From a virus, in IMG/VR virus record IMGVR_UViG_3300005077_000018, positions 1,686-65,685 of that record: a stretch of 64,000 nt of DNA. One strand, 5' to 3'. The notes below the pieces were generated by a model. That model saw only the letters and a program-made list of their open reading frames with translations. It searched no databases and had not been told where the DNA came from. Both the position numbers and the translations under genes were made by a program. Shown piece by piece: positions 3,793 through 52,010 of this stretch; the stretch's first letter is position 1, and each line of letters opens with the position of its first letter.

Positions 3793-5763
3793 ATGGTTCG
3801 TTCAGACCAGGATAAATTCAAAACACAGGAACCGGAAGATTTCTTCGCTAATATGGTGAAGATTTATACCGATATAGACGAGGAGAAAGAACCTCCGTAC
3901 TCTAAGGATAGTCGTGCTCGGGATAAGTGGCTCATAGAATTTGCGAGGAGAGAGCCGCATTTGAGCGGAATACTGTCAAGTGTTACTGCCATTGATAAGA
4001 ACAGAGGGTGGTCTCTAATCGGATCGATGCGTCAGGTTAACAAGTACGCACGAATTCTTCACAATTTCAGAGTGTCTCCCGGTCTAAAGGGATGGCGTCC
4101 AGCTTTCGCTCAGCTGTCGGCATCATTCTGGGGCACGAATCTGGGCGCAGTTGTTGAAGTCGGTAGAGTGGGAGTTGATGGACCTGTTCAGGAATTCTAC
4201 ACAGCAGATCCGACTAAATTCGTCCTCGCAAAGGATCAAAAATTCCCTATTTACTATTATCCTTCCAATGGAAAGAGAATGAAGTGGAGAGATTCAGATT
4301 TCTTCAGGATTTGTTCTCTTCCTTCCATTCTCGAGGAGAACATGGGAATAGGATTCTGTGCCGTCGATCGTGCTGTTCAGCTTGCGAGACTGATGCTGGC
4401 TCTTTTTCGTCATGATGAGGAGATGCTTCTTTCTCGTGCTCCAAGAGGCCTTCTGCTTCTGTCCGGAATAAAGCGCGATCAATGGGAATCCGCTATGAAA
4501 GCAAGAGACGCGGAGCTGGATCAGGGTCAAATGAAGTATTTCGGAGCGATAGCCGTTCTTGCCTCAGCTTCCTCTACCGTTGAGGCGAAGCTCATGGCCC
4601 TTTCTCAGCTTCCGGCGGGTTTCGATCTGAAGATATGGATGGATATGATCATGTACGGATATTCTCTATGCTTCGGATATGACGCATCGGAATTCTGGCC
4701 GGTTCAATACGGTTCTTTGGGGAGAGGAAATGAAACACAGATTCAGCACGAGAAAGCAACCGGAAAGGGTCGTCTTGACTTCGTTCTCGGATTCCAGGAA
4801 CAGGTTACTGATTTTCTGCCTGAGTCTCTTGACTTTGTTGTTGAGCAGCGTGATGATCAGGGAGATCTTACTCGTGCGTCCGTTATTCAGGCGTGGGCGA
4901 ATGTTGCCAAATCTCTGTACACATCTCAATTGAACGGAATTCCTCTGGTAACGAATGAGGAGGCTAGAGTACTTCTGGCCGAGTACGGAGTTATTCCAGC
5001 TACGTGGAGTCCTACCGCCGATGCTTCTGCTACCGATATCGATGATGCTGACGACGAGGAAGTGGTCGATCAACCCGAAGACGAGGAGTCTGCAGGAGGA
5101 TCGTCAGAAGGGAACATGAAGCCAAAGTCAACCAGTCCTGACTCGGCTTCTCCCACCGCTGAGATGCTTCGGTCAGCTTACAAAACTCGAAGAATTCAAG
5201 ATTTAAGAGAGGTTGTTCTTCAGAAAGCTTCTGTGTTTGAAGCCGCGAGAAGATTTCCTAAAGAACCTATTGTTCAGTTTACTTACCCCGGGAATAATAT
5301 CCTGGAGCTGTGGAAATCAGGAGAGGATTTGATGAAACCTAGAGTTTGGGCTTCCATAGGAGATGTTGTTAGAAGAGCAATTCAGGAGAGTCTTCCTCCG
5401 GCAGTTGTCGGATCTGGTCTTGTTCAATCCAATCAGCCGACTCAACCTCAGATTGTGGTTGTAGATACTGAGGGAAGAATAGTTCAGCAAGCACGTCAAG
5501 AACCTTCCATAGTTGTGAACGTGCCCGAGCAGAATTTCCAGGTTGACTTGGAGAGGCTCGGTGAAGTCATAGCCAAACAACTGAAACAGGCTTCTGATCC
5601 TACGATAACTCTTACTCCGATCATTCAACTTCCAGAAATTCCTGTGATCGTAGAGAATAACGTAACTATCCAGGAGCCAGTTACCGAGGCGGTCGTAGAG
5701 GTCAACAGAGGATTCGACGGGAAGATTAAATCGGTAAAGAAAACTGAAAAGGTCATACGATGA
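3793..5763 (+). CDS. Portal protein with acidic linker and C-terminal extension
   Basis: Directly after terL, 656 aa, helical portal-like composition. Confidence 0.8.
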   Translation: MVRSDQDKFKTQEPEDFFANMVKIYTDIDEEKEPPYSKDSRARDKWLIEFARREPHLSGILSSVTAIDKNRGWSLIGSMRQVNKYARILHNFRVSPGLKGWRPAFAQLSASFWGTNLGAVVEVGRVGVDGPVQEFYTADPTKFVLAKDQKFPIYYYPSNGKRMKWRDSDFFRICSLPSILEENMGIGFCAVDRAVQLARLMLALFRHDEEMLLSRAPRGLLLLSGIKRDQWESAMKARDAELDQGQMKYFGAIAVLASASSTVEAKLMALSQLPAGFDLKIWMDMIMYGYSLCFGYDASEFWPVQYGSLGRGNETQIQHEKATGKGRLDFVLGFQEQVTDFLPESLDFVVEQRDDQGDLTRASVIQAWANVAKSLYTSQLNGIPLVTNEEARVLLAEYGVIPATWSPTADASATDIDDADDEEVVDQPEDEESAGGSSEGNMKPKSTSPDSASPTAEMLRSAYKTRRIQDLREVVLQKASVFEAARRFPKEPIVQFTYPGNNILELWKSGEDLMKPRVWASIGDVVRRAIQESLPPAVVGSGLVQSNQPTQPQIVVVDTEGRIVQQARQEPSIVVNVPEQNFQVDLERLGEVIAKQLKQASDPTITLTPIIQLPEIPVIVENNVTIQEPVTEAVVEVNRGFDGKIKSVKKTEKVIR

Positions 5764-6653
5764 GCGGTTTGTCCGTAGTCATTCCCTCCAGGAACGAGCT
5801 ATTTCTGGAAAATACAGTCAGGGATATTTTGACCAACTCAAGAGGAGAACTTGAGATCATCGTAGTTCTTGACGGATATTGGCCCAATCCTCCTCTACCG
5901 GACGATCGAAGAATCAGCATCATTCACAGAGGAAAAGCTAGAGGAATGCGTGACGGGATCAATTCAGCGATTAGTATAGCTCGCAACAAATTCGTCATGA
6001 AATGCGATGCTCATTGTCTATTCGCCGAGGGATTTGATGAAATTTTGAAGGCTGACTGCGACGATGACTGGGTTGTTATTCCAAGAAGATACTCTCTAAA
6101 TCCAGACACGTGGGGTCTAAATAAAAAGACTCCGGTAGACTATCATTTTCTGAGTTATCCGTGGTGGAAGCCTGAGATGCTCGGTCTTCATGGAACGGTA
6201 TGGACAGAACGGGCCAAGGAGAGGCTTCACATTACTCTGGACGAGGAAATGAGTTTTCAGGGATCCTGCTGGTTCACTACCAAGGATCATTTTATCAACA
6301 GAATAAGATTTCTTGAAGAGGAAGGATACGAAACTTTCATCGGAGAACCTCAGGAGGTTGGAAATAAAACTTGGTTGGGAGGGGGCAAGGTAATGGTCAA
6401 TAAGAAGACCTACTACGCTCATCTCCACAAGGGAAAGAGGTTCGGACGAGGATACTTCATGAGCAAAGACGAGACCTACCGAGGAAATCAGTTCAGTTGG
6501 AATTTCTGGTTCTACGACCAATGGTCTGACAGAATTCACGATTTATCCTGGCTAGTAGACAGATTTTGGCCCGTTCCATCCTGGCCTGAAAACTGGAAAG
6601 ACATTCATGAAAACGATATTAGACTTCGTAGAAAACCTGGAAAGTCCTCGTAG
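5760..6653 (+). CDS. Family 2 glycosyltransferase
   Basis: LSVVIPSRNE, EIIVVLDG, GMRDGINSA, KCDAH. Confidence 0.9.
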   Translation: MSGLSVVIPSRNELFLENTVRDILTNSRGELEIIVVLDGYWPNPPLPDDRRISIIHRGKARGMRDGINSAISIARNKFVMKCDAHCLFAEGFDEILKADCDDDWVVIPRRYSLNPDTWGLNKKTPVDYHFLSYPWWKPEMLGLHGTVWTERAKERLHITLDEEMSFQGSCWFTTKDHFINRIRFLEEEGYETFIGEPQEVGNKTWLGGGKVMVNKKTYYAHLHKGKRFGRGYFMSKDETYRGNQFSWNFWFYDQWSDRIHDLSWLVDRFWPVPSWPENWKDIHENDIRLRRKPGKSS

Positions 6654-12467: not shown

Positions 12468-12992
12468 ATGAGTGCAAGTCTTCCAATCGAGTATCTCAGA
12501 GATCTTCCGTTTCATTTTCCAGCTTTTTTCGAGACTGGAACTTCAGAGGGAGATACGGTTCAGTCGGCTCTTGAAGCTGGGTTTTCAGAAATCTACTCCG
12601 TAGAGTTCCATCCAGAAATTTTTAGGAAGGCTCAAAGAAGATTCGTCGAATCCAAAAATGTGAGTTTGCTGAATTTCAAATCGGTGGAAGGTCTCAAAAT
12701 TCTAATCCCGTTTATTGAGGTTCCTACCGTATTCTTCCTGGATGCTCATCCCGATAGAGATGCGGGAGAATCTCCAATCTTGGAGGAGCTAGACGAGATT
12801 TCCAAATTCAAGCTTCCGTTTGTAATATTCGCTGATGATATGAGACTCATGGGTCAGGGAAAATGGTCAAGATCTTCTACCTCGGCTATTCAAGAGAAGA
12901 TTCTGTCTATCCATTCTGATTTTATGATAGATTTTATCGGCAACGGTCATTCAGATAGAGATCTTCTTAGAGCCGTGAGGAATTGGAAATGA
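12468..12992 (+). CDS. SAM-dependent methyltransferase-like protein
   Basis: FFETGTSEG, YSVE, FFLDAH, ILEEL, FADDMR. Confidence 0.7.
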   Translation: MSASLPIEYLRDLPFHFPAFFETGTSEGDTVQSALEAGFSEIYSVEFHPEIFRKAQRRFVESKNVSLLNFKSVEGLKILIPFIEVPTVFFLDAHPDRDAGESPILEELDEISKFKLPFVIFADDMRLMGQGKWSRSSTSAIQEKILSIHSDFMIDFIGNGHSDRDLLRAVRNWK

Positions 12993-18806: not shown

Positions 18807-20132
18807 TTGGATTTTTCTGTTATCGTTCCGTCGTTCAATTCCGCGAAGTATCTTCCGGATCTGTTTCACTCCATATTCGGAGGCGAAACTTCTATTGGCG
18901 TTCTCAAAGCTCAAACTATTCTACCGTACGAAATTATAGTTGTTGATGATGCCTCTCAGGATAATACAGAAGAGGTAGTTGATTCGTTTAGAAGCAAATT
19001 TCCCAGGATATCCTACTACAGGTTGAACAGAAATAGTGGAACTCCTGTGGCTTGCAACGTAGCCGTCAGAAACAGTTCTACGGAAATAATCACTAGAATT
19101 GATTCCGACGATATGCGAGAGTTCGAATCTTTCGAGCGGATGCTTTCTATTCAGAGGTCGAATCCGAATTCGTTCGTTTTCGACGACATAAAAATATTCG
19201 TAAATGGAAAAAGACAGGTTCACGCATGGATAATGCCTGAGTATGATTTCTTCGGTCTTTTGCGGCAAAATACAATTCATGCAGGAATAATGTTTCCTAA
19301 ATCCGCATGGGAGAAATGCGGAGGATATCCCGAAGAGTTTGTCCGCGGAAGAGATGACTGGTCATTCAATGTTGCTCTTGGATCTGTGGGATGTTGCGGT
19401 ATTCATGTTCCTTACGCTGGCTATTTGTACAGAAGAGAGCAGCAAAATCGAACTTTACGAAATTCGTCATCGGAAGCTCAGAGAGACTTCATGTTTCAGA
19501 TGACGAAAAGATTTCCTGATCTGTACTCTGGGAGGTTTCCTATGGGATGCTGTGGAAATAGAGGTTCGCGTACTGCGACTTCTAAACCCTCCGGTTCTTC
19601 GTCGGAACTGGTTGTTGGAGAGGAAGGAATGACAATCCTCGAATATCAGGGAGGAAATTACGGTACTGAGACTTTCTACGGTCCTGTAACCAGAACTCCT
19701 TATCGATTCAACTCCACAAAATATTCGAAAAGAAATGTAGACAATCGGGATTTGCACGCTCCGAAAGGTCAAGGTCTTTTGGATTTTCACAACGGATCTA
19801 AGCCGATATTCGTTATTTGGCGTCCTTCCGAGCCAGTCGTTCAGGTTAACGACGTTCCCGAAGTTCCCGACATTTCCAAGACTGTCGAAGTTCCTGAGAC
19901 TGCGGACGCAACTTCCTCTGAAGTCAATGAGGCTGTTATGACGTTTCCGATCAGAACTCCGATAGAATCGGGACAAGTGAAAGGAATAACGGTAAAGAGA
20001 ATAAAAGCTCTTTCCGACAGGGGCATATCGGATTGGGAATCTTTCGTGTCGTCTTCCTCGGAGCTTCTGTCCGAGATTACTGGAATGTCTGTTGAGGACA
20101 TCAACGCGATCAAGAAGGATCTGACTGAATGA
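18807..20132 (+). CDS. GT2 glycosyltransferase fused to an MGCCG-type domain and an HhH-like C-terminus
   Basis: SVIVPSFN, IIVVDDASQD, RIDSDD, GRDDW; TTG start after AAGGA. Confidence 0.85.
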   Translation: MDFSVIVPSFNSAKYLPDLFHSIFGGETSIGVLKAQTILPYEIIVVDDASQDNTEEVVDSFRSKFPRISYYRLNRNSGTPVACNVAVRNSSTEIITRIDSDDMREFESFERMLSIQRSNPNSFVFDDIKIFVNGKRQVHAWIMPEYDFFGLLRQNTIHAGIMFPKSAWEKCGGYPEEFVRGRDDWSFNVALGSVGCCGIHVPYAGYLYRREQQNRTLRNSSSEAQRDFMFQMTKRFPDLYSGRFPMGCCGNRGSRTATSKPSGSSSELVVGEEGMTILEYQGGNYGTETFYGPVTRTPYRFNSTKYSKRNVDNRDLHAPKGQGLLDFHNGSKPIFVIWRPSEPVVQVNDVPEVPDISKTVEVPETADATSSEVNEAVMTFPIRTPIESGQVKGITVKRIKALSDRGISDWESFVSSSSELLSEITGMSVEDINAIKKDLTE

Positions 20133-20479
20133 TTGACGATATTCTTAGAATTCCTCTCGCGATTCTGGCCGTCTTTAGAGTTACCGAACTGATGGTTTAT
20201 GACGACGGTCCTTTCGGAGTATTTCTACGATTTCGTCATTTTCTGGCGGATCTTTCTACTTCGTCGCGAGCAAGGAATTCGGGAATCAGAACCGTAAGTA
20301 CCGAACTTGCCGACTGGGTTCATTGTCCGTTCTGTGTTGGAGTTTGGATCTCTGTGGTATTTGCGGTTCTGATTCTGATTCCTTCCATTCCAGGAGATGT
20401 TATCATATTGATCCTGGGTTTGGCCGGAGGACAGTCATTTCTACAGCAAAAGGTTTCAAGAGATGCGCTCACGCAATAG
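20129..20479 (+). CDS. DUF1360-like membrane protein
   Basis: LAVFRVTELMVYDDGP and CPFCVGVW with hydrophobic helices. Confidence 0.7.
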   Translation: MIDDILRIPLAILAVFRVTELMVYDDGPFGVFLRFRHFLADLSTSSRARNSGIRTVSTELADWVHCPFCVGVWISVVFAVLILIPSIPGDVIILILGLAGGQSFLQQKVSRDALTQ

Positions 20480-20530
20480 TTTGGGTTTTTTGCAAGGTGT
20501 AAAAATACCTATTGCAATTATGCGCGAAAA

Positions 20531-20545
20531 AATCGAACGTTGTAG
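20531..20545. repeat. Dispersed 15-mer AATCGAACGTTGTAG, copy 1
   Basis: Identical at 51438-51452 and 56551-56565. Confidence 0.9.
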
Positions 20546-20582
20546 TGGCTCGTTTTTGGTCATTTTTAGGGTTGTATAACCA

Positions 20583-21638
20583 ATGCAAATCTATGGAGCT
20601 GGATTAGATCCTCAAGCTGTTTCTCTAAGCAGATATGCCTCTATCGTGGGCTATACTGAGTGGGCTTTCTTCGGAATATCTCACAGTTCCAACTACAGAT
20701 ACAGTATACGAGAAATCTGGAATGAGCATCAGAGGCAAGAAATCGTATCGAGTCTTTCTCAAGCTCAGTCCATGCTAGAAGATGTTATCGGATATCCTCT
20801 GGCTAAGCGTTGGATAGCAGGAGAAAGACACAATCTTTCCGGAAATACTCCCGAAATTCTTTTGACCAAATGGTGCGACGTTCAGGATCTAGGAGTGGAG
20901 CTCAACGAGGTACTCTCAGAAAACGTCCTGATAGATTATACAGGCTCGATTCCTACCGTTTCTATTCTTGTTTCTGAGGATGTTCCTATTCAGGAAGTTC
21001 ATGTTTTTCATCCCGGAGAATCTGAAGAGATAGAATCTTCAAGAAAATCGTCAGTTCCTTCTGGAAGTAATTTCGTTATAACTATTCAGATTCCTCAACC
21101 AAGACTTGTAACTCTTGAGAACAGAGAAAATCCCGAGGAAGGATGGACTAGTGACGATCTTTCGAAATTTCTTTCCGTGGTTGATGTTAGAAGAATACGA
21201 AATGATTCGTCAGTTCAGGCTAATTTCATCAGAAGAATAAATATGACCTCGTCTTTTGGATCCGAGGAAGCTTATCCAGGATTGGAGTATTGCGAAGATC
21301 CTGTTATAGGAAAAATTCAGACTATTCTTTATCCGTCTTTGGGAGGATGTACTCCTTTCGAAGTGGTTGAACTAAACTATTCCGCAGGACGAACCACGAT
21401 ATCAAGAGTAGCAGAAAACATTTTGGTCAGATTAGCTCACTCGTTGATGCCTTCTGAGCCTTGCGGTGAAGATGTAGTTTTGAGGCTGTGGACTAGGGAT
21501 CAGACAATTCCGAAGATTCTTACCAAAGAAAGAATTGAGTGTCCATTCGGAATGTCTGACGGAGCCTGGAGTGCTTGGAAATTCGCTCAGAATATAACGG
21601 TCTTCAGAGCATCCACTACCGCTGTGAGGTATTCATGA
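20583..21638 (+). CDS. Putative head-tail adaptor
   Basis: Position after capsid; C-terminal Y.AG...RLAH. Confidence 0.5.
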   Translation: MQIYGAGLDPQAVSLSRYASIVGYTEWAFFGISHSSNYRYSIREIWNEHQRQEIVSSLSQAQSMLEDVIGYPLAKRWIAGERHNLSGNTPEILLTKWCDVQDLGVELNEVLSENVLIDYTGSIPTVSILVSEDVPIQEVHVFHPGESEEIESSRKSSVPSGSNFVITIQIPQPRLVTLENRENPEEGWTSDDLSKFLSVVDVRRIRNDSSVQANFIRRINMTSSFGSEEAYPGLEYCEDPVIGKIQTILYPSLGGCTPFEVVELNYSAGRTTISRVAENILVRLAHSLMPSEPCGEDVVLRLWTRDQTIPKILTKERIECPFGMSDGAWSAWKFAQNITVFRASTTAVRYS

Positions 21639-22168
21639 TAGCTATAAAATTCGAAGCTATAAGACCTCCTCAATTCAACTCTCAGTTCTACCGAAAGAAT
21701 TTAGTCTTCGAGATGGGAGCTTTCGGTAGAGAAGCCGTGAAGGAATTCTCCAAGGTTACTAAATTCTTCAAGTCCAACAGACCTAAATTTTCATACAATT
21801 TGAATACCATAGCCGAGGGAAGAACCAGAGTAGAAGTGTCAGTATCTACTGACAATCCTCTATTCTTTTGGCTTGATCAGGGAGTTCCTGCTCACGATAT
21901 AATTCCTAGAAAAAGATTCATATCAGGAACTTCAGGAACGTATCATTCGGCCTCTCTTCCTGGAACCCTCTCTACAGATCCTGCTGGAGGAACAAAAATA
22001 ATCGACGGAAGATATCTGAATTTAAACTGGGTAGTTCCCTGGTCAGGAATACGGGCAAGAGAGTGGACCAGACTTATAAGAGAGAAGATGGAGTCTGAGT
22101 ATTCCTTGGCTGACAGACTTCAGACAGCTCTAAATAAATCAGCTGGAGAATGCTGGAAGGGAGAGTGA
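21635..22168 (+). CDS. Putative neck/tail-completion protein (HK97 gp10-like)
   Basis: WLDQGVPAHDIIP and PWSGIRAREW; ATGA-coupled start. Confidence 0.5.
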   Translation: MIAIKFEAIRPPQFNSQFYRKNLVFEMGAFGREAVKEFSKVTKFFKSNRPKFSYNLNTIAEGRTRVEVSVSTDNPLFFWLDQGVPAHDIIPRKRFISGTSGTYHSASLPGTLSTDPAGGTKIIDGRYLNLNWVVPWSGIRAREWTRLIREKMESEYSLADRLQTALNKSAGECWKGE

Positions 22169-22533
22169 TGAAATCTGCCAGATTTATTCTTAGAAGACGA
22201 AGAGCAGTTATTCTCGAAATGGAAATCGAAGGAAAATTTCAGAGAGCTTCTTTTCCTGCCGAAAGTATTGCTCTTAGCAACGAAGATATCGTTTATATGA
22301 CTGAAGAGGAATTTTCTTTAGGAATTCCATTCGGCATACCCTTCGAGGATCGTTTATCCGGAAAGTTTCTTAGTCCAATTTCCATAGCAGAAGCACTTCA
22401 TAATGTGGGTTTGTGGACTTCGAAGGACATTCAGGAAAATCCTCGACTTGTTCAGTCAGCTTTGGTGTCTCTCTTGGGAGATACTCTACATGAGATCACC
22501 AGCTTAGCTCGGGAATTCAAAGCGAAGGAGTAA
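22168..22533 (+). CDS. Hypothetical virion morphogenesis protein
   Basis: ORF between neck and tail-tube genes. Confidence 0.55.
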   Translation: MKSARFILRRRRAVILEMEIEGKFQRASFPAESIALSNEDIVYMTEEEFSLGIPFGIPFEDRLSGKFLSPISIAEALHNVGLWTSKDIQENPRLVQSALVSLLGDTLHEITSLAREFKAKE

Positions 22534-22535
22534 AG

Positions 22536-23993
22536 ATGACTAATTATCTTGCTGGTCAAGCCTCTCTGTGGGTACAACCGGATGGACCCAATACTGAACC
22601 CAAATATCTTGGGTGTCACAGTATCGGGGATATTCCGGAACCGAAAGGCGATTCGACTTTTCTGTACTGTCCCGATCCGGCCCAGGTTGGGAAATTCGTG
22701 GTGAAGAACAGCTACCGTGGAGAGCCTGGGACTATCACTACGACTCTTGAGACCGATCTAAGGTCCACGGCTGACTATCTTGAGGATCTCTCCTCGAAGG
22801 GTTGTACCTTCCCGATCTTCGTTCACAAACTCACTACGGGTCGTCGCGACGTCTTCACCAACTTTGAACGGTCGTTTGTTCTTCGCGGTGTCGACATCAC
22901 CCAGAGCACTCTAAGTAAATTGGCCTCAAGAACACCTTCTGATGAAGGCGAATCTATGCAGTCCTTTGATCTGTCGGTTCTTCAGGTTCTTAGATGCTTC
23001 AATCTTCAGGCTGTCAGAACTTCGATTACGGAAACTGAGGACGTTACCGCCATCGCTGTTCTTGGTCAGGATCGTTGCGAAGGTGGCGGTCTTAGAAGAA
23101 TGGATCCTGAGGACTCTTTATTCGCCGCCACAAAGCATCTTTCCGGAAGCTCGGCCAATGTTGCCAATGTCCTGAATTCAGCTTACGAAGCTTCCTGGGG
23201 AGCCACCGGAGCAAATCCATTCGGTGCTGGATACGATATCAACGGAATAGTCGGATTCCTGATCTCCGCCACTTCGGTCAGAGTGGTTGTTGCCAGAGGA
23301 ACCACCATTGGTGGAACTCCGGCTCAAATCGCGTATTCTGACGACGACGGCGATACTTGGACGACCGTTACCGTTGGGTCGGTCAATGGAGAATTCGTTT
23401 CTGGAGCGCACGCTCTGTTCTCCCTCGACAGATATCACATCTGGCTCGGAACCAATCTCGGTAGAATATACTTCTCGGCTGACGGAGGTCTTACCTGGTC
23501 TCTTCAAGAGAATCAAGCCATATCCAACACAGCGATCAAGGGCATAGATTTCGTAGACGAGCTTACCGGAATGGTGGTTTACACCGGAGGAGAAGTCGGA
23601 CTCTCGGTTGATGGAGAGACCTGGTCCGAGCTGACGGATACCACTTCATCTGCCCTCGTTGACTGTCAGATGATCACCAGATACAATCTCTGGGCAGTCG
23701 GAACTGACGGAATGTTTTATTCCATGGACGGTGGAGTTACCTGGGTCAGCAGATCCTCGGATAACGTCGGAGCTATCGACTTCTTGAACGAAATGTTCGG
23801 TATAGCAGTCGGCGGAGCTGCCAACGGGAATATCTGGATGACCATAGACGGAGGGTATGACTGGCTTCCGCTGACTGCGGTGACCAATTCCGGCCTTACC
23901 GATGTTGTGGTCGTATCAACCAAGTTGGCCTATGTTGTCGGAAATGCCAACGGCGGAACAGGCTTCATTGCCAAACTCGTTCCGGCCTCCTAA
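22536..23993 (+). CDS. Major tail tube protein with C-terminal Asp-box (BNR) beta-propeller
   Basis: Precedes chaperones and TMP; SDDDGDTW, SADGGLTW, SMDGGVTW, TIDGGYDW. Confidence 0.75.
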   Translation: MTNYLAGQASLWVQPDGPNTEPKYLGCHSIGDIPEPKGDSTFLYCPDPAQVGKFVVKNSYRGEPGTITTTLETDLRSTADYLEDLSSKGCTFPIFVHKLTTGRRDVFTNFERSFVLRGVDITQSTLSKLASRTPSDEGESMQSFDLSVLQVLRCFNLQAVRTSITETEDVTAIAVLGQDRCEGGGLRRMDPEDSLFAATKHLSGSSANVANVLNSAYEASWGATGANPFGAGYDINGIVGFLISATSVRVVVARGTTIGGTPAQIAYSDDDGDTWTTVTVGSVNGEFVSGAHALFSLDRYHIWLGTNLGRIYFSADGGLTWSLQENQAISNTAIKGIDFVDELTGMVVYTGGEVGLSVDGETWSELTDTTSSALVDCQMITRYNLWAVGTDGMFYSMDGGVTWVSRSSDNVGAIDFLNEMFGIAVGGAANGNIWMTIDGGYDWLPLTAVTNSGLTDVVVVSTKLAYVVGNANGGTGFIAKLVPAS

Positions 23994-36064: not shown

Positions 36065-36070
36065 TTCTCA

Positions 36071-36101
36071 GCAATAGGGCAGATTATTTCTGCCCTATTG
36101 C
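36071..36101. terminator. Perfect 13-bp hairpin ending the late operon
   Basis: GCAATAGGGCAGA ttatt TCTGCCCTATTGC. Confidence 0.75.
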
Positions 36102-36126
36102 ATTTAAATCTCAGATGTGGTAAAAT
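36098..36126 (+). promoter_or_regulatory. Sigma70-type promoter 1 of the replication operon
   Basis: TTGCAT-17-TAAAAT with TG extension. Confidence 0.7.
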
Positions 36127-36170
36127 AAAAATATGACATTCAATTTTGAGATTAATTTTGTTTCGCCCTA

Positions 36171-36199
36171 TTGCTTTTTGGCTTCAGGTATGCTATAAT
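36171..36199 (+). promoter_or_regulatory. Sigma70-type promoter 2 of the replication operon
   Basis: TTGCTT-17-TATAAT with TG extension. Confidence 0.8.
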
Positions 36200-36228
36200 T
36201 TAGGTACAAAATTACAAAGAGGATTCAA

Positions 36229-40567: not shown

Positions 40568-40945
40568 ATGACTTCTATCGTGTCCTTTGATCCAGGAATG
40601 TCTACAGGAATATTTTTGTATCTGTCCGGAAATCCAGATTTTGAATACTCTTTGGTGAAGGATCCTTCTGGCTTGAAAAGATTTATTTCAACTTTCGATT
40701 TTGACATAGTTATCTGTGAAAGACTTCCTACTCCAGTAGCATCAGGTTTAGGATTTGTAGTTCAGATTATAAAAGAAAGATTCGACGAAATTTATTTTAT
40801 TTCTCCAGGAGAATGGAAACCCCTGGCAAGAACTTGGAAACATCCTACTTTCAAAACTGAGCATGAGAAGGATGCTTACTTCCTTATGAGATACTGGTCT
40901 ACCTTTAAGAGAAAGGATTTTGTATGCGGAAAAAAGTGGCAATAG
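40568..40945 (+). CDS. RuvC-like Holliday junction resolvase
   Basis: SFDPGMSTG, VICE, HEKDA. Confidence 0.7.
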   Translation: MTSIVSFDPGMSTGIFLYLSGNPDFEYSLVKDPSGLKRFISTFDFDIVICERLPTPVASGLGFVVQIIKERFDEIYFISPGEWKPLARTWKHPTFKTEHEKDAYFLMRYWSTFKRKDFVCGKKWQ

Positions 40946-41715
40946 TCGGAGGAGGTCCGTCATCGTGGTTTGCAAGAATGGCTTGCTTCCACGCTGGAAT
41001 AGTTCCGACAGTTTTTGTAAGATCAGAGGTCAATCCTCCAGGAGCTTTCTGGATTCATGAACTTCCAGATTTTGCTCATCATCTTCCTATGTTCAAAATT
41101 TCAGTTAGAAGTTCGGGATCAAGAGAGATCTATAAGAGGAAACAGTGGGGAAACATAGATCTTCCTGAAAATTATAGATCTTCTTTTCCCGATCTAGAGT
41201 ACGAAACCTACGGAGCTGATCCGTCGACGGTAAGATCATTTGTTGATTCTGAACTCGCTCACGAAAGAATAATTTTAGAAGGAAATCTTAATGATGAGGA
41301 TCTTTCTTCTCTAAAGGATACTTATGACGAGGTTTTCTACACTTTTCCGTCTGAAAGATCAAAGCGAGAAAACTCCGAGTTCTTCCGGTTTATTCCCATA
41401 TTTTCCACCCAAACTCCTGTAGCTGATAGGCATATAAAAGAAATATTTTATGACGGCAGATCTCAATCTTCCGTTGTAAGATTTTCTGAAATATGGGGAA
41501 TGCAATTCAGAGAATATCAGGTGATTCGATATCCCAGTCAAGTGGACAAATTTGCAAAATCTAACTGTGTCTTCATTCCGGACATAATTCCTACAGATAG
41601 GAAACTATCTCCGCTGTCCCCTGAAGGAACAACTCCTATAGGAAGATTGGCATGTATGAACAGAACTATGCTGTCTCATCAGACCTATGAAATAGTGAGG
41701 GAAAAGTTATCATGA
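40924..41715 (+). CDS. FAD/NAD-binding oxidoreductase (UDP-galactopyranose-mutase-like architecture)
   Basis: KVAIVGGGPS Rossmann start; C-terminal IGRLA. Confidence 0.65.
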   Translation: MRKKVAIVGGGPSSWFARMACFHAGIVPTVFVRSEVNPPGAFWIHELPDFAHHLPMFKISVRSSGSREIYKRKQWGNIDLPENYRSSFPDLEYETYGADPSTVRSFVDSELAHERIILEGNLNDEDLSSLKDTYDEVFYTFPSERSKRENSEFFRFIPIFSTQTPVADRHIKEIFYDGRSQSSVVRFSEIWGMQFREYQVIRYPSQVDKFAKSNCVFIPDIIPTDRKLSPLSPEGTTPIGRLACMNRTMLSHQTYEIVREKLS

Positions 41716-42632
41716 ATTCTCCTTTCGATCTTCTTTACAAAAGACAGAGATTCTATAACACAAAATTGCGAGCAGAAAAGGGTGGAGACAGAATGACCTG
41801 GACTAAGACCTATCTCCTCGGTCTGTCGTCGGAAATAGGTGACGTACTGAAAAGTCTCGCATGGAAAGCGCATAGAAAGAAAGAGACAACGGAACCTTCT
41901 AGAGATAATCTTGCGTTCGAGTTCGCCGATCTTCTCAAATACGTCATGTCTCTTTCAGAACTGTGGGGCTTGGATTCCGACGAACTTATTTCTTTTGCGA
42001 ACAGGAAGAGCGCTCTTCTGGAAAGAATTAGCTACGAGGATTCTCGGGAAATTCCGAATGGCTCTACCGTTCTCATGGTAGATTTAGATGGAACAGTAGG
42101 AGATTGGAGATCCTCTTTTAGATCATTTCTTGAGAATCTTGGTCTAGATCTAGGTGAAGATTCAGAGAGGTCTCTTGACATAGAGATGGAACTAAATCTC
42201 TCCTACAGTGAATATATTGATCTAAAGGATAAATTCGAATCTACTGGAGGATACGCTAATCTGTATGCCTATCCTGACGCAGTTGACTTTCTTATAGAAG
42301 CTAAGAGCAGAGGTTTCAAAATAGTAGTCTTTACCGCTAGACCGGTGGATAAGCATAGAAGAATATGGTCGGACACTTTGGACTGGTTATACTCTAACGG
42401 AATTTCGGCTGATCAGGTACGCTTCGGCTCTGAAACCAGAATCGTCTATGCCAAAGAGTTGTCCTGGAACAATAGGGTATTTGTACTAGAGGACAATCCT
42501 CAATTGATGTTGAGAGCGGCGAACGCCGGTCTTACAGTAATAGGACGAAGGCATCAATATAACTCCGGTATAGATCATCCCGGAATACGCATGGTAGATT
42601 CATTTGAAGAGATAAATCTGGAGGATCTATGA
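41712..42632 (+). CDS. MazG-like NTP pyrophosphatase fused to HAD 5'-nucleotidase
   Basis: SEIGDV...EFADLLKY; VDLDGT, VFTARP, VLEDNP. Confidence 0.85.
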   Translation: MNSPFDLLYKRQRFYNTKLRAEKGGDRMTWTKTYLLGLSSEIGDVLKSLAWKAHRKKETTEPSRDNLAFEFADLLKYVMSLSELWGLDSDELISFANRKSALLERISYEDSREIPNGSTVLMVDLDGTVGDWRSSFRSFLENLGLDLGEDSERSLDIEMELNLSYSEYIDLKDKFESTGGYANLYAYPDAVDFLIEAKSRGFKIVVFTARPVDKHRRIWSDTLDWLYSNGISADQVRFGSETRIVYAKELSWNNRVFVLEDNPQLMLRAANAGLTVIGRRHQYNSGIDHPGIRMVDSFEEINLEDL

Positions 42633-42955
42633 GAACTAGGGAGGATATGGAAGCTCATTTTGAGCGTCGCGACAGTCAATTTGAAGACATCTGCACATCT
42701 TCAGCGGCCATCTTCGAGGTAAAGAACAGACAGTACAATGACGCGATATCTAGAACTGGTCTTCTCGGAGCGTGCGTAGAGATTGTAGGAGTAGCCGCTA
42801 GACTGGAACCTCTGATCATACAAAATTCAACTTTTGAGAGTGACTTTGAAACTGATTCCTTCAGATCTTCTGTTCTGAACGCTCTGAACGATCTTCACAA
42901 TTACGCAGTTATCGCCCTGATGATGCTTGAGGATCAAAACTGGAGGGGAGAGTGA
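42629..42955 (+). CDS. Nucleotide-modification-associated domain 1 (Nmad1/DUF1599)-like protein
   Basis: KNRQYND...G..G...RL...DLHNYAVIALMML. Confidence 0.7.
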   Translation: MRTREDMEAHFERRDSQFEDICTSSAAIFEVKNRQYNDAISRTGLLGACVEIVGVAARLEPLIIQNSTFESDFETDSFRSSVLNALNDLHNYAVIALMMLEDQNWRGE

Positions 42956-43764
42956 GAATTCTCGCGGGAATACCTACAAGACTACGAAATACCAGCGGAA
43001 AGATAGCTCAGACCCTGGCTACCGTAGTAGATGATGTCTTCGTAGTGTCTCAGGGAGCTGAAGTATGGGTTGACGAAGGAACGGACCTCTCAAAGATTCA
43101 TGTTCAGGAATATCCCGAAAATTTTGGAGTAATTCCTGCTAGAAATGAAATTCTTAGAGTTGCTTTCCAGGGAGACTACGACATAGTCATTCAGAGTGAT
43201 GATGACATTTCATTCCGTGAAGCTACTATTCGGAGAATGATAGAAATTCTGGATGAATTTCCAACCATAGGAGCTATAACCTCAGAAAGCAGAGCTTATT
43301 TCAACTGGAACAAGGATGTCAGAAGTACCAGACCATTTCTTCTTACTCCGTGCGCCGCTCAACTCTGGGCTGCTAGAGTACCGATCATGAGGGAAATCGG
43401 GTTAATGGAAGTTCCGTATTTAGAGGATAGAGAGCACGGTTGTCGACTCTGGAAGTCCGGATATCCGGTAGTTGAACTTCACGAAACTATAGATCTTGCT
43501 CATAATCCATTCATTTCAAGAACGAATGTCTCCTCGAAAATTGGTGGGCAGAATGAGGAGCACGAAGGAGATATTCACTCCGGTCTGAAAGCTGGAATAG
43601 AAGAAATGAACCTCAGACATGGAGACATAGTAAATCTCAAGTATCTCGGAATACGAGGAAGATCGTTTACTTCCAGATACAATTGGCCCAGAATGATAGA
43701 GTATGTAGATCGTCGATTCGGAAAAATTCTTGGGTATGCGGATTCCAAGGGAAGAGTCTTATGA
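42952..43764 (+). CDS. GT-A fold glycosyltransferase
   Basis: ILAGIPT, GVIPARNEIL, QSDDDI, YLEDRE. Confidence 0.75.
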   Translation: MRILAGIPTRLRNTSGKIAQTLATVVDDVFVVSQGAEVWVDEGTDLSKIHVQEYPENFGVIPARNEILRVAFQGDYDIVIQSDDDISFREATIRRMIEILDEFPTIGAITSESRAYFNWNKDVRSTRPFLLTPCAAQLWAARVPIMREIGLMEVPYLEDREHGCRLWKSGYPVVELHETIDLAHNPFISRTNVSSKIGGQNEEHEGDIHSGLKAGIEEMNLRHGDIVNLKYLGIRGRSFTSRYNWPRMIEYVDRRFGKILGYADSKGRVL

Positions 43765-44543
43765 GGATATTTTCTGCTATAAAAACTCTCGGAAGGAAGA
43801 CTGCTGGCAAGGTAGCTGATAATCTATCGAGGCTGTCAGAATGCGTAACAGTCGTGTCATTTGGAGCTACCGTAGAAACCAAATCTTCCAATACGAAAAT
43901 AATAGAGGTATTCGGAACTGATAAAGCTGAGGCTGAGAATATACTCATACAAGAATTTCTTGCCTCAGACTGTGACATCTATCTTTCTTGCGACGACGAC
44001 ATCATTGTTCCTGAGGTCTCCGCTCTTGCTTCTGCTAAGATCGTTTCAGAAATTCAATCCGCGGGAATAGTGTCCATTCCCGATCGAAAAACTTTCTTCT
44101 ATCAGTCTAAAGTAACCTGTAACAGAGGATTCAAACTTACGACCAATATATCGAAGATATGGATTGCTAGAAGAGAGGTTGTGAAAGAAGTTGGTTGGTT
44201 TAGGTTTCCCTTTGCAGAAGACAGAGATTTCATGGTACGAGCATATAGGGCTGGATTCGCTGTAGTTTCTCTGTCAGAATCTGTAGAGCAGTCCTGCAGA
44301 TCTCTATCCTCAAAAGAAGATCTTTCTGATTTCTCCAATTTTATACGAACCAAGGAAAAGCAGAAGAAAGCCATGATAAGTTTCTTCAGAGCTAACAAAC
44401 CTCTGGTAAGTTTGGAACCTGAGAATCCCTCAGAGAAAAATCCGTTCATAGTGAAGTATGATTGGAATCAACTCCTACTGATAGTTGTCAAAAGATTCGG
44501 AGTATCGGTAGGATATGAAGACTCTCTTGGAAGGAGATTTTGA
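43761..44543 (+). CDS. GT-A fold glycosyltransferase, paralog of the preceding gene
   Basis: SCDDDI, FAEDRD; similar C-terminus (GVSVGYEDSLGRRF vs GKILGYADSKGRVL). Confidence 0.7.
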   Translation: MRIFSAIKTLGRKTAGKVADNLSRLSECVTVVSFGATVETKSSNTKIIEVFGTDKAEAENILIQEFLASDCDIYLSCDDDIIVPEVSALASAKIVSEIQSAGIVSIPDRKTFFYQSKVTCNRGFKLTTNISKIWIARREVVKEVGWFRFPFAEDRDFMVRAYRAGFAVVSLSESVEQSCRSLSSKEDLSDFSNFIRTKEKQKKAMISFFRANKPLVSLEPENPSEKNPFIVKYDWNQLLLIVVKRFGVSVGYEDSLGRRF

Positions 44544-44544
44544 A

Positions 44545-45285
44545 ATGCCAGTTGTAAGAACAGCTTATGACGACCGTCACGATACAACGATTGAGTTCGT
44601 CACTTTGCCGATCTCTACCGTTGAGTTTGTTGACGGAATTACCGATCCGTTTCAGACAGTAGCCAAGATGTCTCGAGGCTACGGGGGGATCTACTCAAAT
44701 GATCCCTGTACAGAAGATGAAATTGCTCAAGCAATCAAGGATATGAATTCCACCAAACTTGGAACTCCTCTAGAAACGGTAGAGGTCATATTTTTGATCC
44801 ACGATGTGTCCAGAGCATTTACCCATCAACAGGTCAGAACTAGAATTGGTGCTTCATTCGTTCAGGAGTCCATGAGATTTCTGGGACATCAGGGTAAGTA
44901 TCGCATAATGGTCTCCGGGGAAATCTTCCGTAATTCAGAAGCCTTTGAAGCCTACCAGCAAGCGTGCTTCACGTCCATCTGGACGTACGAGGAAATGCTC
45001 AAAATCGGAATTCCAGGAGAGGATGCACGAGACATTCTTCCTCACGGAATATGTACTCGTTTGTTCGTTGGATACGCCATGAGTACTCTTCGTACCGTGT
45101 ATGCTCAGAGAATGTGTTGTCAGGCTCAGCCTGGTCAATGGCAACATATTCTTCGTCAGATGAAGAGGATTCTCATAGAGAAATACGGAGAACGAATGAC
45201 CGACATGCTTTCAGCTCCGTATGAGCGAGGAGAACCTTGCGGTTATCGGGCCAGCTTCGATCGTCCGTGTACATGGCAAAAATGA
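44545..45285 (+). CDS. thyX: Flavin-dependent thymidylate synthase-like protein with RTR variant motif
   Basis: TPLE, VSRAFTHQQVRTRIGASFVQESMRF, EDARDILP. Confidence 0.85.
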   Translation: MPVVRTAYDDRHDTTIEFVTLPISTVEFVDGITDPFQTVAKMSRGYGGIYSNDPCTEDEIAQAIKDMNSTKLGTPLETVEVIFLIHDVSRAFTHQQVRTRIGASFVQESMRFLGHQGKYRIMVSGEIFRNSEAFEAYQQACFTSIWTYEEMLKIGIPGEDARDILPHGICTRLFVGYAMSTLRTVYAQRMCCQAQPGQWQHILRQMKRILIEKYGERMTDMLSAPYERGEPCGYRASFDRPCTWQK

Positions 45286-45914
45286 AAACTCCAATCTGCG
45301 ATCTTGCTGAAAAATATGGAAGTGACAAGGCTCCCTGGGGTCACAACTATACTCCGGTATACTGGGATCTCATGTGCGAAAAGCAGTACGAAGAGGTGAA
45401 TATTCTGGAGATAGGAGTTTTGACAGGAGCTTCCATCAGAATGTGGCTAGAGTTCTTCCCTCGTTCCACCGTATTCGCTCTAGATGTAGACGAGGTAGCT
45501 CTAGAGAGGCTTCGAGGAACCAGTCACAGAATTATTCCTATGTTAGGATCTCAGACCGACTTCCTAGTATGGAATTCCTTTCCTAGGGTTTCTTACGATT
45601 TCATAATAGACGACGGAAGTCATATTCCCAATGACCAGATGAGGACATTCGAGGAAAATTTTCATCGCGTAAAATCCGGAGGATTCTGGATCATAGAAGA
45701 TACTCATTGTATGTTTCATGACAAATTCAATCCAACCAAAAGCTTCGAGTTATATACCTGGTTTTCGCAGCTTATACTTCTTCAGCAAATGCGAGGAGCC
45801 GAGGGCGGAAATTTTGATCGAGCTCTGAATTCTGGAATACTAATCGGAAGTCTTACCAGAATGATTAGATCCATACGAAGCTACAAATCTCTGATGATTT
45901 TCGAGAGGGCTTAA
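45282..45914 (+). CDS. SAM-dependent O-methyltransferase (MycE/TylE-like)
   Basis: KYGSDK...HNY, ILEIGV, FIIDDGSH, GGFWIIEDT. Confidence 0.85.
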   Translation: MKTPICDLAEKYGSDKAPWGHNYTPVYWDLMCEKQYEEVNILEIGVLTGASIRMWLEFFPRSTVFALDVDEVALERLRGTSHRIIPMLGSQTDFLVWNSFPRVSYDFIIDDGSHIPNDQMRTFEENFHRVKSGGFWIIEDTHCMFHDKFNPTKSFELYTWFSQLILLQQMRGAEGGNFDRALNSGILIGSLTRMIRSIRSYKSLMIFERA

Positions 45915-46609
45915 TGAACAAGGTAATCTCGTATACTACTAGCTCCTATTATCAAAATATGGAGGATATGCTTCATGAATGTTGCGAGAGATTCGATCTT
46001 CAACACGAGAGATATGATCAAGAATGGTTTCATTCCACCGAATACTATTCGAAACACAAAGACGTCGCTGATCAAAGAAGAATGGCAGGTTTCGCAATTT
46101 GGAAACCATTCATCATTCTGGACGCTTTGAGGAAGGTCGAAGAAAACGATGTAATCTGCTATCTTGACGCTAGCGTGGTATTCGAAGAAGACCCCAGACC
46201 ATTCTTCGACACAGTAAAATTCATAGCGGTAGGTAACGCAGACGACTGGGTGAATCGAGACTGGATAAAGAGAGACGCGTTTATCCTGATGAATGCCGAT
46301 AGCTCGGAATTTTGGAATGCAAGACAGATTTGGGCGGGTCAAATTGTTGTTAGGAAGAATAACGCTTCGATGACCCTCATGGAAGAATTCTTGACGTGGT
46401 GTGAAGATAGAAGAATAATAACTGACGAAGATAACGTCTGCGGTCTTCCGAATTTCTCGGGATTTAGAGAAAATAGATCCGAGCAAGCTATTCTCGCCAT
46501 AATGGCGGTCATCTATCCTGAATTCATTTCTCACGATCCTACCGTATTCCACGATTATGCTGGAAACTGGTCAGAGTGGATTCCTTGGTCCAAGAAGGGA
46601 AGAAGATGA
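45914..46609 (+). CDS. Nucleotide-diphospho-sugar transferase-like protein
   Basis: IWKPFIILDAL, CYLDAS, EQAILAI. Confidence 0.6.
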   Translation: MNKVISYTTSSYYQNMEDMLHECCERFDLQHERYDQEWFHSTEYYSKHKDVADQRRMAGFAIWKPFIILDALRKVEENDVICYLDASVVFEEDPRPFFDTVKFIAVGNADDWVNRDWIKRDAFILMNADSSEFWNARQIWAGQIVVRKNNASMTLMEEFLTWCEDRRIITDEDNVCGLPNFSGFRENRSEQAILAIMAVIYPEFISHDPTVFHDYAGNWSEWIPWSKKGRR

Positions 46610-46842
46610 TAGTTCTGACTTGTATCGACTGCAGAGGATTAGTGGAATCCAGAGGAGGATTCCCTTACTGCGAAAGATGCGGTAAGTTCTTGTATATGTA
46701 TCAGATTAGATTTACCGTGGTTCCTACGCCAGAAAACTGGACAGAAAAAGAGGAGTTTTTAGATGTCAGAACAACCCCAGAAGGATTACATAACGACATT
46801 CGATCAACTGGAGAGATGCAAGGGTCATCCGATATCTCTTGA
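46606..46842 (+). CDS. Small Zn-ribbon protein
   Basis: CIDC...CERC; overlaps the polA start. Confidence 0.5.
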   Translation: MIVLTCIDCRGLVESRGGFPYCERCGKFLYMYQIRFTVVPTPENWTEKEEFLDVRTTPEGLHNDIRSTGEMQGSSDIS

Positions 46843-48727: not shown

Positions 48728-48729
48728 CA

Positions 48730-48903
48730 ATGGAGGTTCTTATCTGTCCTTTCTGCGACTCCATATTTCTTCAAGAGTATGATGCTGGAGACGAATGTCC
48801 GGAATGCGAACTAGGAGTCCTCATATCATTCGATGAGTATTTAGAGAGAATAAGCTCCTCATTTGGAGAAGCATTCTCATTCTTCAGAGGTTCAGATGAG
48901 TGA
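48730..48903 (+). CDS. 57-aa Zn-ribbon protein
   Basis: CPFC...CPEC; not in the ORF track. Confidence 0.6.
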   Translation: MEVLICPFCDSIFLQEYDAGDECPECELGVLISFDEYLERISSSFGEAFSFFRGSDE

Positions 48904-51382: not shown

Positions 51383-51407
51383 ATTCATTACAATTTTTTT
51401 GCCATAG

Positions 51408-51452
51408 TTTTATATGGCTTGTGTATTTTACGCATATAATCGAACGTTGTAG
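51408..51452. repeat. 45-nt dispersed element, copy A
   Basis: 40/45 identical to 56521-56565. Confidence 0.9.
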
Positions 51453-51520
51453 GGGCATGTTTTTGGTCATTAGGCAGGTACGCGCAAAAAATAGCCCCGT
51501 TTCAGGTCAAAAGTGGGCTA

Positions 51521-51549
51521 TTGCAAAATATTTTCTGGCGGGTTATAAT
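51521..51549 (+). promoter_or_regulatory. Sigma70-type promoter
   Basis: TTGCAA-17-TATAAT. Confidence 0.85.
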
Positions 51550-51597
51550 AAATTGTAGCAAAAAATTCTTTCGTCTTCAAGAGATAAGGAGGCTAGT

Positions 51598-51915
51598 ATG
51601 GGTACAAAATTCACTATCGAAGAGGTTGACTTCTTCCCATCAAAGCGTGCGGTCAGCAACGAGTACTCTCCAATATACGAGATGATTGCGTCTGCTCCCC
51701 TGGAAAGTCCCCGAAGAATCGGTCCGTTCAGTCGTCGGGAAGCCAACAGCGTTCAGACCTCAATCACCGAGAAATTCAAGGATTCCTTGGAATTCAAGGT
51801 CTTTACGACAATTCGGGATATCCACGGAGATAAACCCTCCTCTGATGAGGAAGGTCGCTATGTCTTCGTGACAAAGGTTGCTCGGGTTAATCCCAACTCT
51901 TCCCAGGAAGATTAG
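51598..51915 (+). CDS. Hypothetical small protein
   Basis: AAGGAGG RBS. Confidence 0.75.
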   Translation: MGTKFTIEEVDFFPSKRAVSNEYSPIYEMIASAPLESPRRIGPFSRREANSVQTSITEKFKDSLEFKVFTTIRDIHGDKPSSDEEGRYVFVTKVARVNPNSSQED

Positions 51916-51934: not shown

Positions 51935-52010
51935 GGGCCTCTAGCTCAGTGGTTAGAGCGGACGGCTCATAACCGTTTGGTCGCTGGTTCGATCCCAGCG
52001 AGGCCCACCA
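51935..52010 (+). tRNA. tRNA with CAT anticodon, likely Ile2 (lysidine, reads AUA)
   Basis: Cloverleaf GGGCCTC/GAGGCCC, loop CT-CAT-AA, TTCGATC T-loop, encoded ACCA; resembles ileX-type more than Met tRNAs. Confidence 0.9.

Follow-up and report, generated by a model that had tools for sequence, protein, structure and literature searches.

Four short stretches in the intergenic gaps of a viral genome are nearly devoid of the dinucleotide GA on one strand, in a genome that is otherwise rich in GA and its complement TC. The genome belongs to IMG/VR record IMGVR_UViG_3300005077_000018, a 70,023-nt linear virus contig rated 95% complete, of which we analyzed bases 1686-65685 (the window, 64,000 nt; positions are those of the window). 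The stretches, at 20464-20595, 51371-51580, 56486-56616 and 58525-58662, carry 2, 1, 1 and 0 GA on the + strand, exactly the counts given in an initial annotation, which also linked them to a 1-kb GA-poor island at 714-1720. The depletion is specific to GA, follows the sense strand of the flanking genes and recurs in diverged relatives. We tentatively attribute it to a division of the genome into two compartments: coding DNA rich in a modified GA/TC context, and sparsely modified regulatory gaps together with the 1-kb island, which would be an early transcription unit. We regard this explanation as possible rather than probable.

The initial annotation had raised the prospect that the depletion might vanish after correction for base composition. 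It persists: the pooled stretches hold 4 GA against 33.5 expected, an observed/expected ratio (O/E) of 0.12, and none of 5000 mononucleotide shuffles was as low. GA is the most depleted of the 16 dinucleotides, followed by CT (0.56), TC (0.62) and AG (0.63); AA (1.54) and TT (1.28) are in excess, and GG and GC are also high. When all 130-nt windows of the 70-kb genome were ranked by composition-corrected GA depletion, the four stretches came 1st, 7th, 8th and 10th, with most other top-ranked windows in the 1-kb island. Two of the four stretches also contain GA-free runs of 140 and 139 nt, which are third and fourth in length genome-wide. GA and TC are over-represented genome-wide (O/E 1.42 and 1.45), which makes the depletion local and strand-specific and the contrast with the stretches more than 10-fold. 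It should be noted that the boundaries in the initial annotation minimize GA; with strict stop-to-start limits the count is 14 of 36 expected (O/E 0.39). In boundary-optimized shuffles of 401-nt neighborhoods, three stretches remained significant (P<0.0005, 0.003 and 0.003) and the 20.5-kb island was marginal (P=0.09).

Depletion of this kind was not seen in control DNA. In 37 co-directional gaps of unrelated viral contigs, drawn from the IMG/VR matches to a 15-mer described below, sense GA had an O/E of 1.06 and no gap was at or below 0.3. Gaps were defined with a greedy longest-open-reading-frame caller; a caller guided by ribosome-binding sites was dropped, as it gave worse gap definitions. 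With 7-mers shared between the islands masked, the unique remainder still held only 2 GA of 17.2 expected (p=6e-6). By context, YGAY is nearly absent from the gaps (1 of 16.5 expected), whereas RGAR is near neutral (16 of 19) because these are mostly real ribosome-binding sites, which excludes avoidance of Shine-Dalgarno mimics as the cause. We conclude that the depletion is real, GA-specific and not compositional.

The initial annotation held that GA is kept out regardless of local gene orientation, and this did not stand. On the + strand, gaps of the leftward gene arm carry 33 GA (27.3 expected) but only 13 TC (28.5 expected), so that the purge tracks the sense strand. We read nine curated gaps outside the 1-kb island in the direction of their flanking genes and counted 32 sense GA of 67.5 expected (0.47) and 59 sense TC of 59.9 (0.98). 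In the gap cores, cut by the first 8 nt and by the last 20 nt (the ribosome-binding-site zone), sense GA was 16 of 48.5 (0.33, p=5.5e-8) and sense TC 42 of 48.8 (0.86), with a GA/TC asymmetry of p=0.0009. Dinucleotide profiles of leftward and rightward gaps correlate at r 0.64 when each is read in its own sense orientation, and at 0.12 otherwise. The leftward-arm gap at 59537-59660 (minus strand) illustrates the flip. It holds a TTGCAA-N17-TATAAT promoter at about 59594-59622, read directly, and a TCATTTAGG word in minus orientation, and its + strand has 9 GA (6.4 expected) and 3 TC (8.7 expected), that is, 3 sense GA of 8.7. A rule by which the + strand is always purged is rejected, since the leftward-arm gaps flip.

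The 1-kb island (714-1720) is a complete minus-strand transcription unit with genes at 1142-1576 and 825-1058 and a strong minus-strand terminator at 804-781. Its + strand contains no GA (45 expected) and 42 TC (77 expected), with AA at 2.35 and TT at 1.37. The proposal that the gaps and the 1-kb island have a signature in common was borne out: their 16-dinucleotide profiles correlate at r=0.85 (0.78 without GA), and the correlation with the bulk is r=-0.60. On its + strand, the island has a dinucleotide profile like that of the gaps in sense frame (r 0.80 and 0.68), and its non-coding parts are GA-poor in their own sense frame (11 of 26 expected). One possibility is that the island behaves as part of the rightward gene arm, as DNA that is not translated. 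Two related loci, L070 and L071, have the island in the same orientation relative to the terminase gene. In L070, whose terminase is 66% identical, the homologous island (5461-6464, upstream of the terminase gene) has no GA, and 7 TC where 61 are expected. With both strands purged, L070 speaks for a reader of the dinucleotide at the level of DNA. A search for relatives with the 144-aa island protein found none.

Outside the gaps, GA and TC are raised in every codon phase, with 1.80 for GA in phase 2-3 and 1.90 for TC in phase 3-1. Codon choice follows (GGA makes up 63% of Gly codons, AGA 59% of Arg and TTC 61% of Phe), and RGAR/YTCY words are enriched about 2-fold in the bulk. The surplus, seen in all codon phases, in synonymous choice and in RGAR/YTCY words, is one at the DNA level. 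The phage itself carries a tRNA-Arg that reads AGA (anticodon TCT; + strand, 52324-52397), adjoining a tRNA-Met at 51935-52010, which suggests that this codon choice is not copied from the host. Avoidance of the restriction type, in which a word is under-represented genome-wide, does not apply to GA/TC.

Palindromes point in the same direction. Relative to a first-order Markov model, 6-bp palindromes are avoided if they lack GA/TC (O/E 0.65), whereas the 16 with GA/TC escape avoidance (1.05; p=0.005), an exemption seen for no other dinucleotide class. All relatives found through the primase share it (GA/TC-bearing vs. other, 0.95 vs. 0.69 and 0.94 vs. 0.71), but neither unrelated contigs (0.76 vs. 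0.86) nor the wider TerL group (0.77 vs. 0.73) do. The exemption is limited to 6-bp sites; 4-bp and 6-bp palindromes pooled under the same model showed no difference (0.87 vs. 0.90). This is what protection of GA/TC-containing sites predicts, and we take it as moderate evidence that GA/TC probably behaves, genome-wide, as a protected, modified context. The five GA-poor islands (the 1-kb island and the four stretches) lie outside the palindrome avoidance of the bulk: short palindromes that the bulk avoids are several-fold denser there (GCGC 16-fold, CGCG 6-fold, TGCA and GGCC 4-fold), and GATC and GAATTC, which occur 525 and 90 times in the bulk, are absent. As a separate observation, TTAA is extremely rare in this genome (61 sites in 70 kb; O/E 0.15 under a mononucleotide and 0.20 under a first-order Markov model), far below every other 4-mer, and TTA makes up only 6% of Leu codons.

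The gap depletion recurs in relatives, which were found through their primase (58-71% identity). In lineages whose primase is 64-68% identical and whose gaps are otherwise unalignable, GA counts were 2 of 8.1 and 2 of 5.8 expected in L035, 6 of 15 in L040 and 0 of 3.0 in L047, and the surviving GA lie in a GAACG core and in ribosome-binding sites. The gap that follows the primase gene has a GA O/E of 0.29 in the window, 0.25 in L035, 0.40 in L040 and 0 in L047, all of which carry a glycosyltransferase and a strong GA/TC bias, compared to 1.18 in L036, 0.70 in L039, 0.83 in L052 and 0.94 in L061. L035/L049 and L043 each have two gaps with the core GAACGTTGT(A/G)G, and L040 carries a different repeated module of its own at the two corresponding positions. 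A TTGCAAGGTGTAAAAATA-like word, found here at 20490, recurs in L035 and L040. In L043, a GA-rich gene, possibly a homing-endonuclease-like reading frame, is inserted at 12490-12720 in place of the post-primase gap, and the module stands elsewhere, at 17473 and 21436.

The initial annotation described the stretches as intergenic regulatory islands, and they are indeed non-coding, lie where gene blocks adjoin and bear conserved regulatory words. The islands at 20.5, 51.4 and 56.5 kb separate rightward genes. An exact 15-mer, AATCGAACGTTGTAG, occurs three times in the genome, only in these three gaps, and is followed by GGGCATG, TTTTTGG and TCATT..AGG words. Three of the four leftover GA lie within the conserved motif AATCGAACG (20531, 51438 and 56551), much as had been claimed. 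An exact scan of IMG/VR for the 15-mer returned 34 matches elsewhere, all single copies in unrelated contigs, at the level of chance. Other shared words fared less evenly. ATTTTTAGGG is on the + strand at 20562 and 58600, but the 1-kb island has it solely as the reverse complement, at 1629; GGGCATGTTTTT is on the + strand at 51453 alone, and at 58.5 kb it is the reverse complement that is found. CTATTGC is shared as claimed (1611, 20509 and 51518), yet a non-depleted gap has it as well, at 36095 and 36168. The stretches thus belong to a clade-specific family of repeated regulatory gap modules, which may act as promoters, operators or leaders.

Island 1 (20480-20582, + strand) is preceded by a DUF1360 gene (20129-20479) and followed by a 351-aa gene (20583-21638). 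It contains the clade-conserved TTGCAAGGTGTAAAAATA (20490-20507), CCTATTGCA (20508-20516), the 15-mer (20531-20545) and TCATTTTTAGGG (20560-20571), and has 2 sense GA of 6.3 expected and 3 TC of 4.9. Island 2 (51383-51597, + strand) is 3' of the primase-helicase gene and carries a terminator-like hairpin (51401-51418), the 15-mer (51438-51452), GGGCATGTTTTT from 51453 and the ribosome-binding site of the gene at 51598-51915. It also has the best sigma70-like promoter of the region (TTGCAA-N17-TATAAT, 51521-51549, 10/12). With 4 sense GA of 13.6 expected and 10 TC of 10.8, it includes a GA-free 139-nt run (51443-51581) and the top GA-depleted window of the genome. Island 3 (56479-56632, + strand) has a second copy of an element of about 45 nt that includes the 15-mer (56551-56565); GGGCATG and TAGCGCCCAAAAAC words follow, as does the ribosome-binding site of the gene at 56633-56821. 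Its GA count is 1 of 7.5 expected within the boundaries of the initial annotation and 6 of 10.6 within strict limits, the extra GA being in the end of the upstream gene and in the ribosome-binding site. Island 4 (58519-58620, minus strand) lies where the two gene arms converge, between a SWIM-like gene (58621-58959, minus strand; the SWIM match is weak, E 0.0034, below the cut-off) and an open reading frame at 58195-58518 (minus strand). Module words occur there in both orientations, the + strand has 1 GA of 5.7 expected and 2 TC of 6.9, and a GA-free run of 140 nt spans 58524-58663. Terminators lie nearby at 58278-58302 (+ strand) and 58175-58151 (minus strand).

The initial annotation explained the islands as sites needing contact with host RNA polymerase or regulators; for the polymerase, this was not supported. 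When -35 and -10 hexamers near the consensus and 16-18 nt apart were scored, no sigma70 match of at least 9/12 was present in the 20.5-kb, 56.5-kb and 58.5-kb islands, that is, in three of the four. The 58.5-kb island, furthermore, lies between two minus-strand genes and not upstream of a rightward gene. Conversely, the GA count is near expectation, as given below, in the gap at 36065-36228 (+ strand), which precedes the replication module and combines a perfect hairpin with a pair of sigma70-like promoters that rank among the best (a CCCTATTGC -35 region, N17, then TAAAAT or TATAAT, read directly). The hairpin, a perfect inverted repeat at 36071-36101 (GCAATAGGGCAGA...TCTGCCCTATTGC), is made from CCCTATTGC, the word that also serves as extended -35 in both promoters just downstream.

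The surrounding genome consists of a rightward gene arm from about 1.7 to 58.3 kb and a leftward arm from 58.6 to about 66.4 kb. In order, the rightward arm encodes terminase, portal, capsid, a glycosylation and tail block, an SNF2 helicase, a PD-(D/E)XK nuclease, an AAA_24 ATPase, a candidate modification cassette, a family A polymerase, an AEP primase-helicase and small genes. GC skew changes sign at about 58.3 kb, at island 4, where the arms meet. An opposite-strand pair of strong intrinsic-terminator hairpins (58151-58302, 11 bp each) marks the meeting point, and its minus-strand hairpin sits within the last rightward gene. Rfam identified two tRNAs in the window and nothing else, and PHROGs and Pfam searches of ten small island-adjacent genes and the early-arm genes found no regulator, sigma factor or RNase. 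Among 50,697 deposited phages, megablast with 19000-23000 detected no DNA-level match. Two apparent gaps that flank the polymerase gene (46610-46762 and 48728-48862) resemble unannotated small zinc-ribbon genes (CxxC...CxxC) and are GA-rich, as coding DNA is. Just beyond the window, at genome positions 68122-68255 (66437-66570 in window coordinates), a 134-nt TC-free stretch lies upstream of the leftward operon. It consists of tandem GAGTGAACG and GAACA/GAACG repeats adjoining an AT-rich tract, and it has the GAACG core in common with the 15-mer; it is iteron- or operator-like and might serve as an origin or master control region.

The candidate modification cassette (40924-46609, + strand, upstream of the polymerase gene) was assigned from Pfam and PHROGs matches. 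It comprises an NTP-pyrophosphatase/PNK-like fusion, two family-2 glycosyltransferase-like genes with weak scores, a ThyX-like gene (E 3.8e-25) and a methyltransferase. Under the explanation that we favor, the four stretches would be regulatory intergenic modules of a virulent-type tailed phage, in which terminator hairpins and promoter-like elements accompany a repeated operator-like module, conserved in the clade and centered on GAACGTTGTAG. GA and TC would be driven up on both strands of coding DNA as the most likely context of a protective DNA hypermodification, with the pyrimidine in YTCY as our best guess for the modified base and the ThyX-like, NTP-pyrophosphatase and glycosyltransferase genes as its presumed source. 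Selection would strip the dinucleotide from the module-bearing gaps and from the 1-kb early unit, chiefly on one strand (sense GA being template TC), and the resulting sparse modification would leave these regions readable and meltable by the transcription machinery and phage regulators. The GA that are retained would be functional, in the operator core and in ribosome-binding sites. With the TC pyrimidine as the modified base, the gaps would be purged on their template strand; ribosome-coupled elongation might cope with bulky bases in the template, but initiation, or passage through untranslated stretches, might not. We infer both the modification and its location at GA/TC, as well as its avoidance as the reason for the purge. 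An extended version, which we consider quite improbable, sees YTCY/RGAR hypermodification as armor for the whole genome, with strand-specific windows left unmodified around the regulatory modules, and the single modifiable GA kept in the operator core TCGAACGTT of a window otherwise lacking GA as a timing switch. That core GA would be fully modified on infecting DNA and unmodified on new copies, and could thereby time middle or late transcription.

Several observations weigh against this explanation. The two-promoter gap at 36065-36228 is not depleted (7 GA of 8.6 expected, 9 TC of 8.9), and one GA lies inside a promoter spacer. The spacers that flank the tRNAs are likewise not depleted (12 GA of 12.6 expected and 15 of 11.9), nor is a short terminator gap at 59.0 kb. 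A rule by which all untranslated RNA lacks GA is rejected as universal, given the tRNA spacers, and because these three kinds of gap are not depleted, the purge is tied to module-bearing gaps and not to promoters or untranslated DNA generally. Sense TC in the gap cores is nearly neutral (0.86), whereas a reader of double-stranded DNA should be sensitive to both strands. Strand logic also differs, since the gaps purge GA from the non-template strand and the 1-kb unit purges it from the template strand; the mismatch is lifted if the 1-kb unit is taken as DNA that the rightward arm reads through and that goes untranslated.

Comparison with relatives raises further difficulties. Among loci that cover the cassette region, the glycosyltransferase occurs in the GA/TC-biased clade and in none of the outside relatives save L038, which has little bias. 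Glycosyltransferase, strong bias and depleted gaps are confined to one well-supported clade of the primase tree (4 lineages vs. 4), and their co-occurrence therefore counts as about one evolutionary event. When all gaps not covered by open reading frames of at least 70 aa were compared across 13 loci, coding bias and gap depletion were uncorrelated, in a crude set heavily contaminated by small genes. The palindrome exemption extends to relatives that lack the glycosyltransferase and the strong bias, so any modification cannot be put down to the glycosyltransferase alone. The ThyX-like gene may encode a conventional thymidylate synthase. Finally, searches of the genome found no Tet_JBP (PF12851) match and no TGT/DpdA (PF01702) match even at E<=10, a search in which 14 of 14 control genomes matched.

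The most serious alternative, although an unlikely one, is selection at the level of RNA or transcription, by which GA would be disfavored in transcribed, untranslated message (for example through a host or phage endoribonuclease that cleaves GA in RNA free of ribosomes, or through hybrid or structure effects) and translated RNA would be shielded. It is the most serious because the sense-strand polarity follows naturally: the purge is on the sense strand in both arms, and leftward gaps resemble rightward gaps in their own sense orientation alone. Even the 1-kb island, which on its + strand looks like a sense-frame gap and has no convincing + strand terminator at its left edge, could be read-through RNA. 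However, much of the GA-free 139-nt run at 51.4 kb is upstream of the sole good promoter and may not be RNA at all, and both the untranslated tRNA spacers and the 36.1-kb leader are non-depleted. RNA-level selection also leaves the GA/TC surplus, the palindrome exemption and the loss of both GA and TC in L070 unexplained, and we know of no GA-specific nuclease of such a kind. A rather unlikely alternative is that the depletion is a by-product of vocabulary, the gaps being mosaics of functional words (for promoters, operators and hairpins, with runs of A and T) that happen to be GA-free and that also produce the likeness to the 1-kb island. Depleted gaps are indeed those with module words (the 15-mer, TCATT..AGG, GGGCATG and TAGCGCC..AAAAA), the word-free 36.1-kb gap and tRNA spacers are not depleted, and the low AG, CT and TC with high AA, TT, GG and GC are expected of DNA rich in runs and hairpins. 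Yet the unique sequence left after masking is equally depleted, GA is depleted 4-5 times more than any other dinucleotide, relatives with different words show the same depletion, and the ban in the 1-kb island runs through two protein-coding genes.

Mutational decay of the CpG type, in which a hypermutable modified dinucleotide (TC to TT, GA to AA) erodes where coding selection is absent, is very unlikely. It would account for the excess of AA and TT where GA and TC are low, in the four stretches as in the 1-kb island, but synonymous and codon-junction positions are enriched in GA/TC and the non-coding DNA at 36.1 kb and in the tRNA spacers is not eroded. Moreover, the total absence of GA across 1 kb of coding sequence, kept in relatives, needs selection, and the polarity is opposite to that of deamination of an exposed non-template strand. 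Chance combined with boundary picking in AT-rich gaps is extremely improbable. The boundaries were trimmed, the 20.5-kb island alone is only marginal once this is corrected for, and single-window p values of 1e-4 to 1e-2 fail genome-wide multiple-test correction if the neutral O/E is 1. Against this, all four stretches fall in the genome's top ten, the pooled gap cores are strongly depleted, three islands pass the boundary-optimized shuffle, gaps of unrelated phages are never so low and relatives replicate the pattern.

The pattern joins several known ideas, namely motif avoidance, hypermodification in a dinucleotide context and compartments resembling CpG islands. Repeated intergenic cassettes include the PeSL units of T4-type phages and the start-associated or stoperator repeats of mycobacteriophages. 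As in those, a short conserved element recurs here in several block-boundary gaps (the 15-mer three times; two copies each in L035, L040 and L043), but to our knowledge such elements are defined by a motif or hairpin and not by a dinucleotide ban that reaches into unique flanks. Avoidance of restriction sites or short motifs in phage genomes is counter-selection of a short word. The GA depletion resembles it in being visible only after composition correction, and this genome also shows the ordinary avoidance of 6-bp palindromes; the GA depletion differs in that the word is a non-palindromic dinucleotide, purged from one strand in about 2% of the genome and over-represented elsewhere. In vertebrate CpG islands, the density of a modifiable dinucleotide differs between regulatory islands and bulk, and TpG/CpA are the decay products. 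Here too the density differs sharply between regulatory islands and bulk and decay-like products (AA/TT) are seen, but it is the islands that lack the dinucleotide and the bulk that is enriched, the effect is strand-specific, and selection rather than differential mutation appears to be responsible. CpG depletion is treated in PMC4804638.

Among phage DNA modifications, bases derived from 5-hydroxymethyldeoxyuridine (5hmdU) at TG/TC are described in passages of a 2019 paper (PMC6449724), and a phage T-dioxygenase, 5mYOX97, prefers NTC/YTY according to excerpts of another (PMC13229309). In both systems, as these excerpts present them, a two-letter context that includes TC sets which bases become bulky, restriction-blocking pyrimidines. 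The likeness here consists of YTCY/RGAR-rich bulk DNA, a thymidylate-synthase homologue, an NTP pyrophosphatase and glycosyltransferases. Unlike the 5mYOX and 5hmdU systems, this genome has no Tet_JBP gene and no recognizable 5-hmdU DNA kinase (5-HMUDK) was identified in it, and its modification is proposed from sequence. The excerpts of the two papers do not mention enrichment of the context in the genome or regulatory islands free of it. In phage CAjan, preQ0, a 7-deazaguanine, is placed at GA and GGC via DpdA, GA is a proven modification motif and restriction sites containing GA are resistant, according to passages of PMC7544227. The DpdA pathway is excluded here, as no TGT/DpdA homologue was found in this 95%-complete genome. 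Full-text literature searches, which yield papers in excerpt, did not find a description of bulk enrichment combined with strand-specific purging of regulatory gaps.

If the link to modification is true, sequence alone would reveal the two-letter context of a still unknown phage DNA hypermodification. Heavy modification would then carry a regulatory cost, paid by the phage in editing its own control regions, and the islands would mark DNA suited to testing the effects of bulky bases on bacterial transcription. The combination of enriched bulk, context-free sense-strand islands and palindrome exemption would also be a cheap signature with which to find and type modified phages in metagenomes. 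Even without that link, a clade-conserved, strand-specific dinucleotide ban in regulatory gaps is an unexplained selective constraint on this group of phages.

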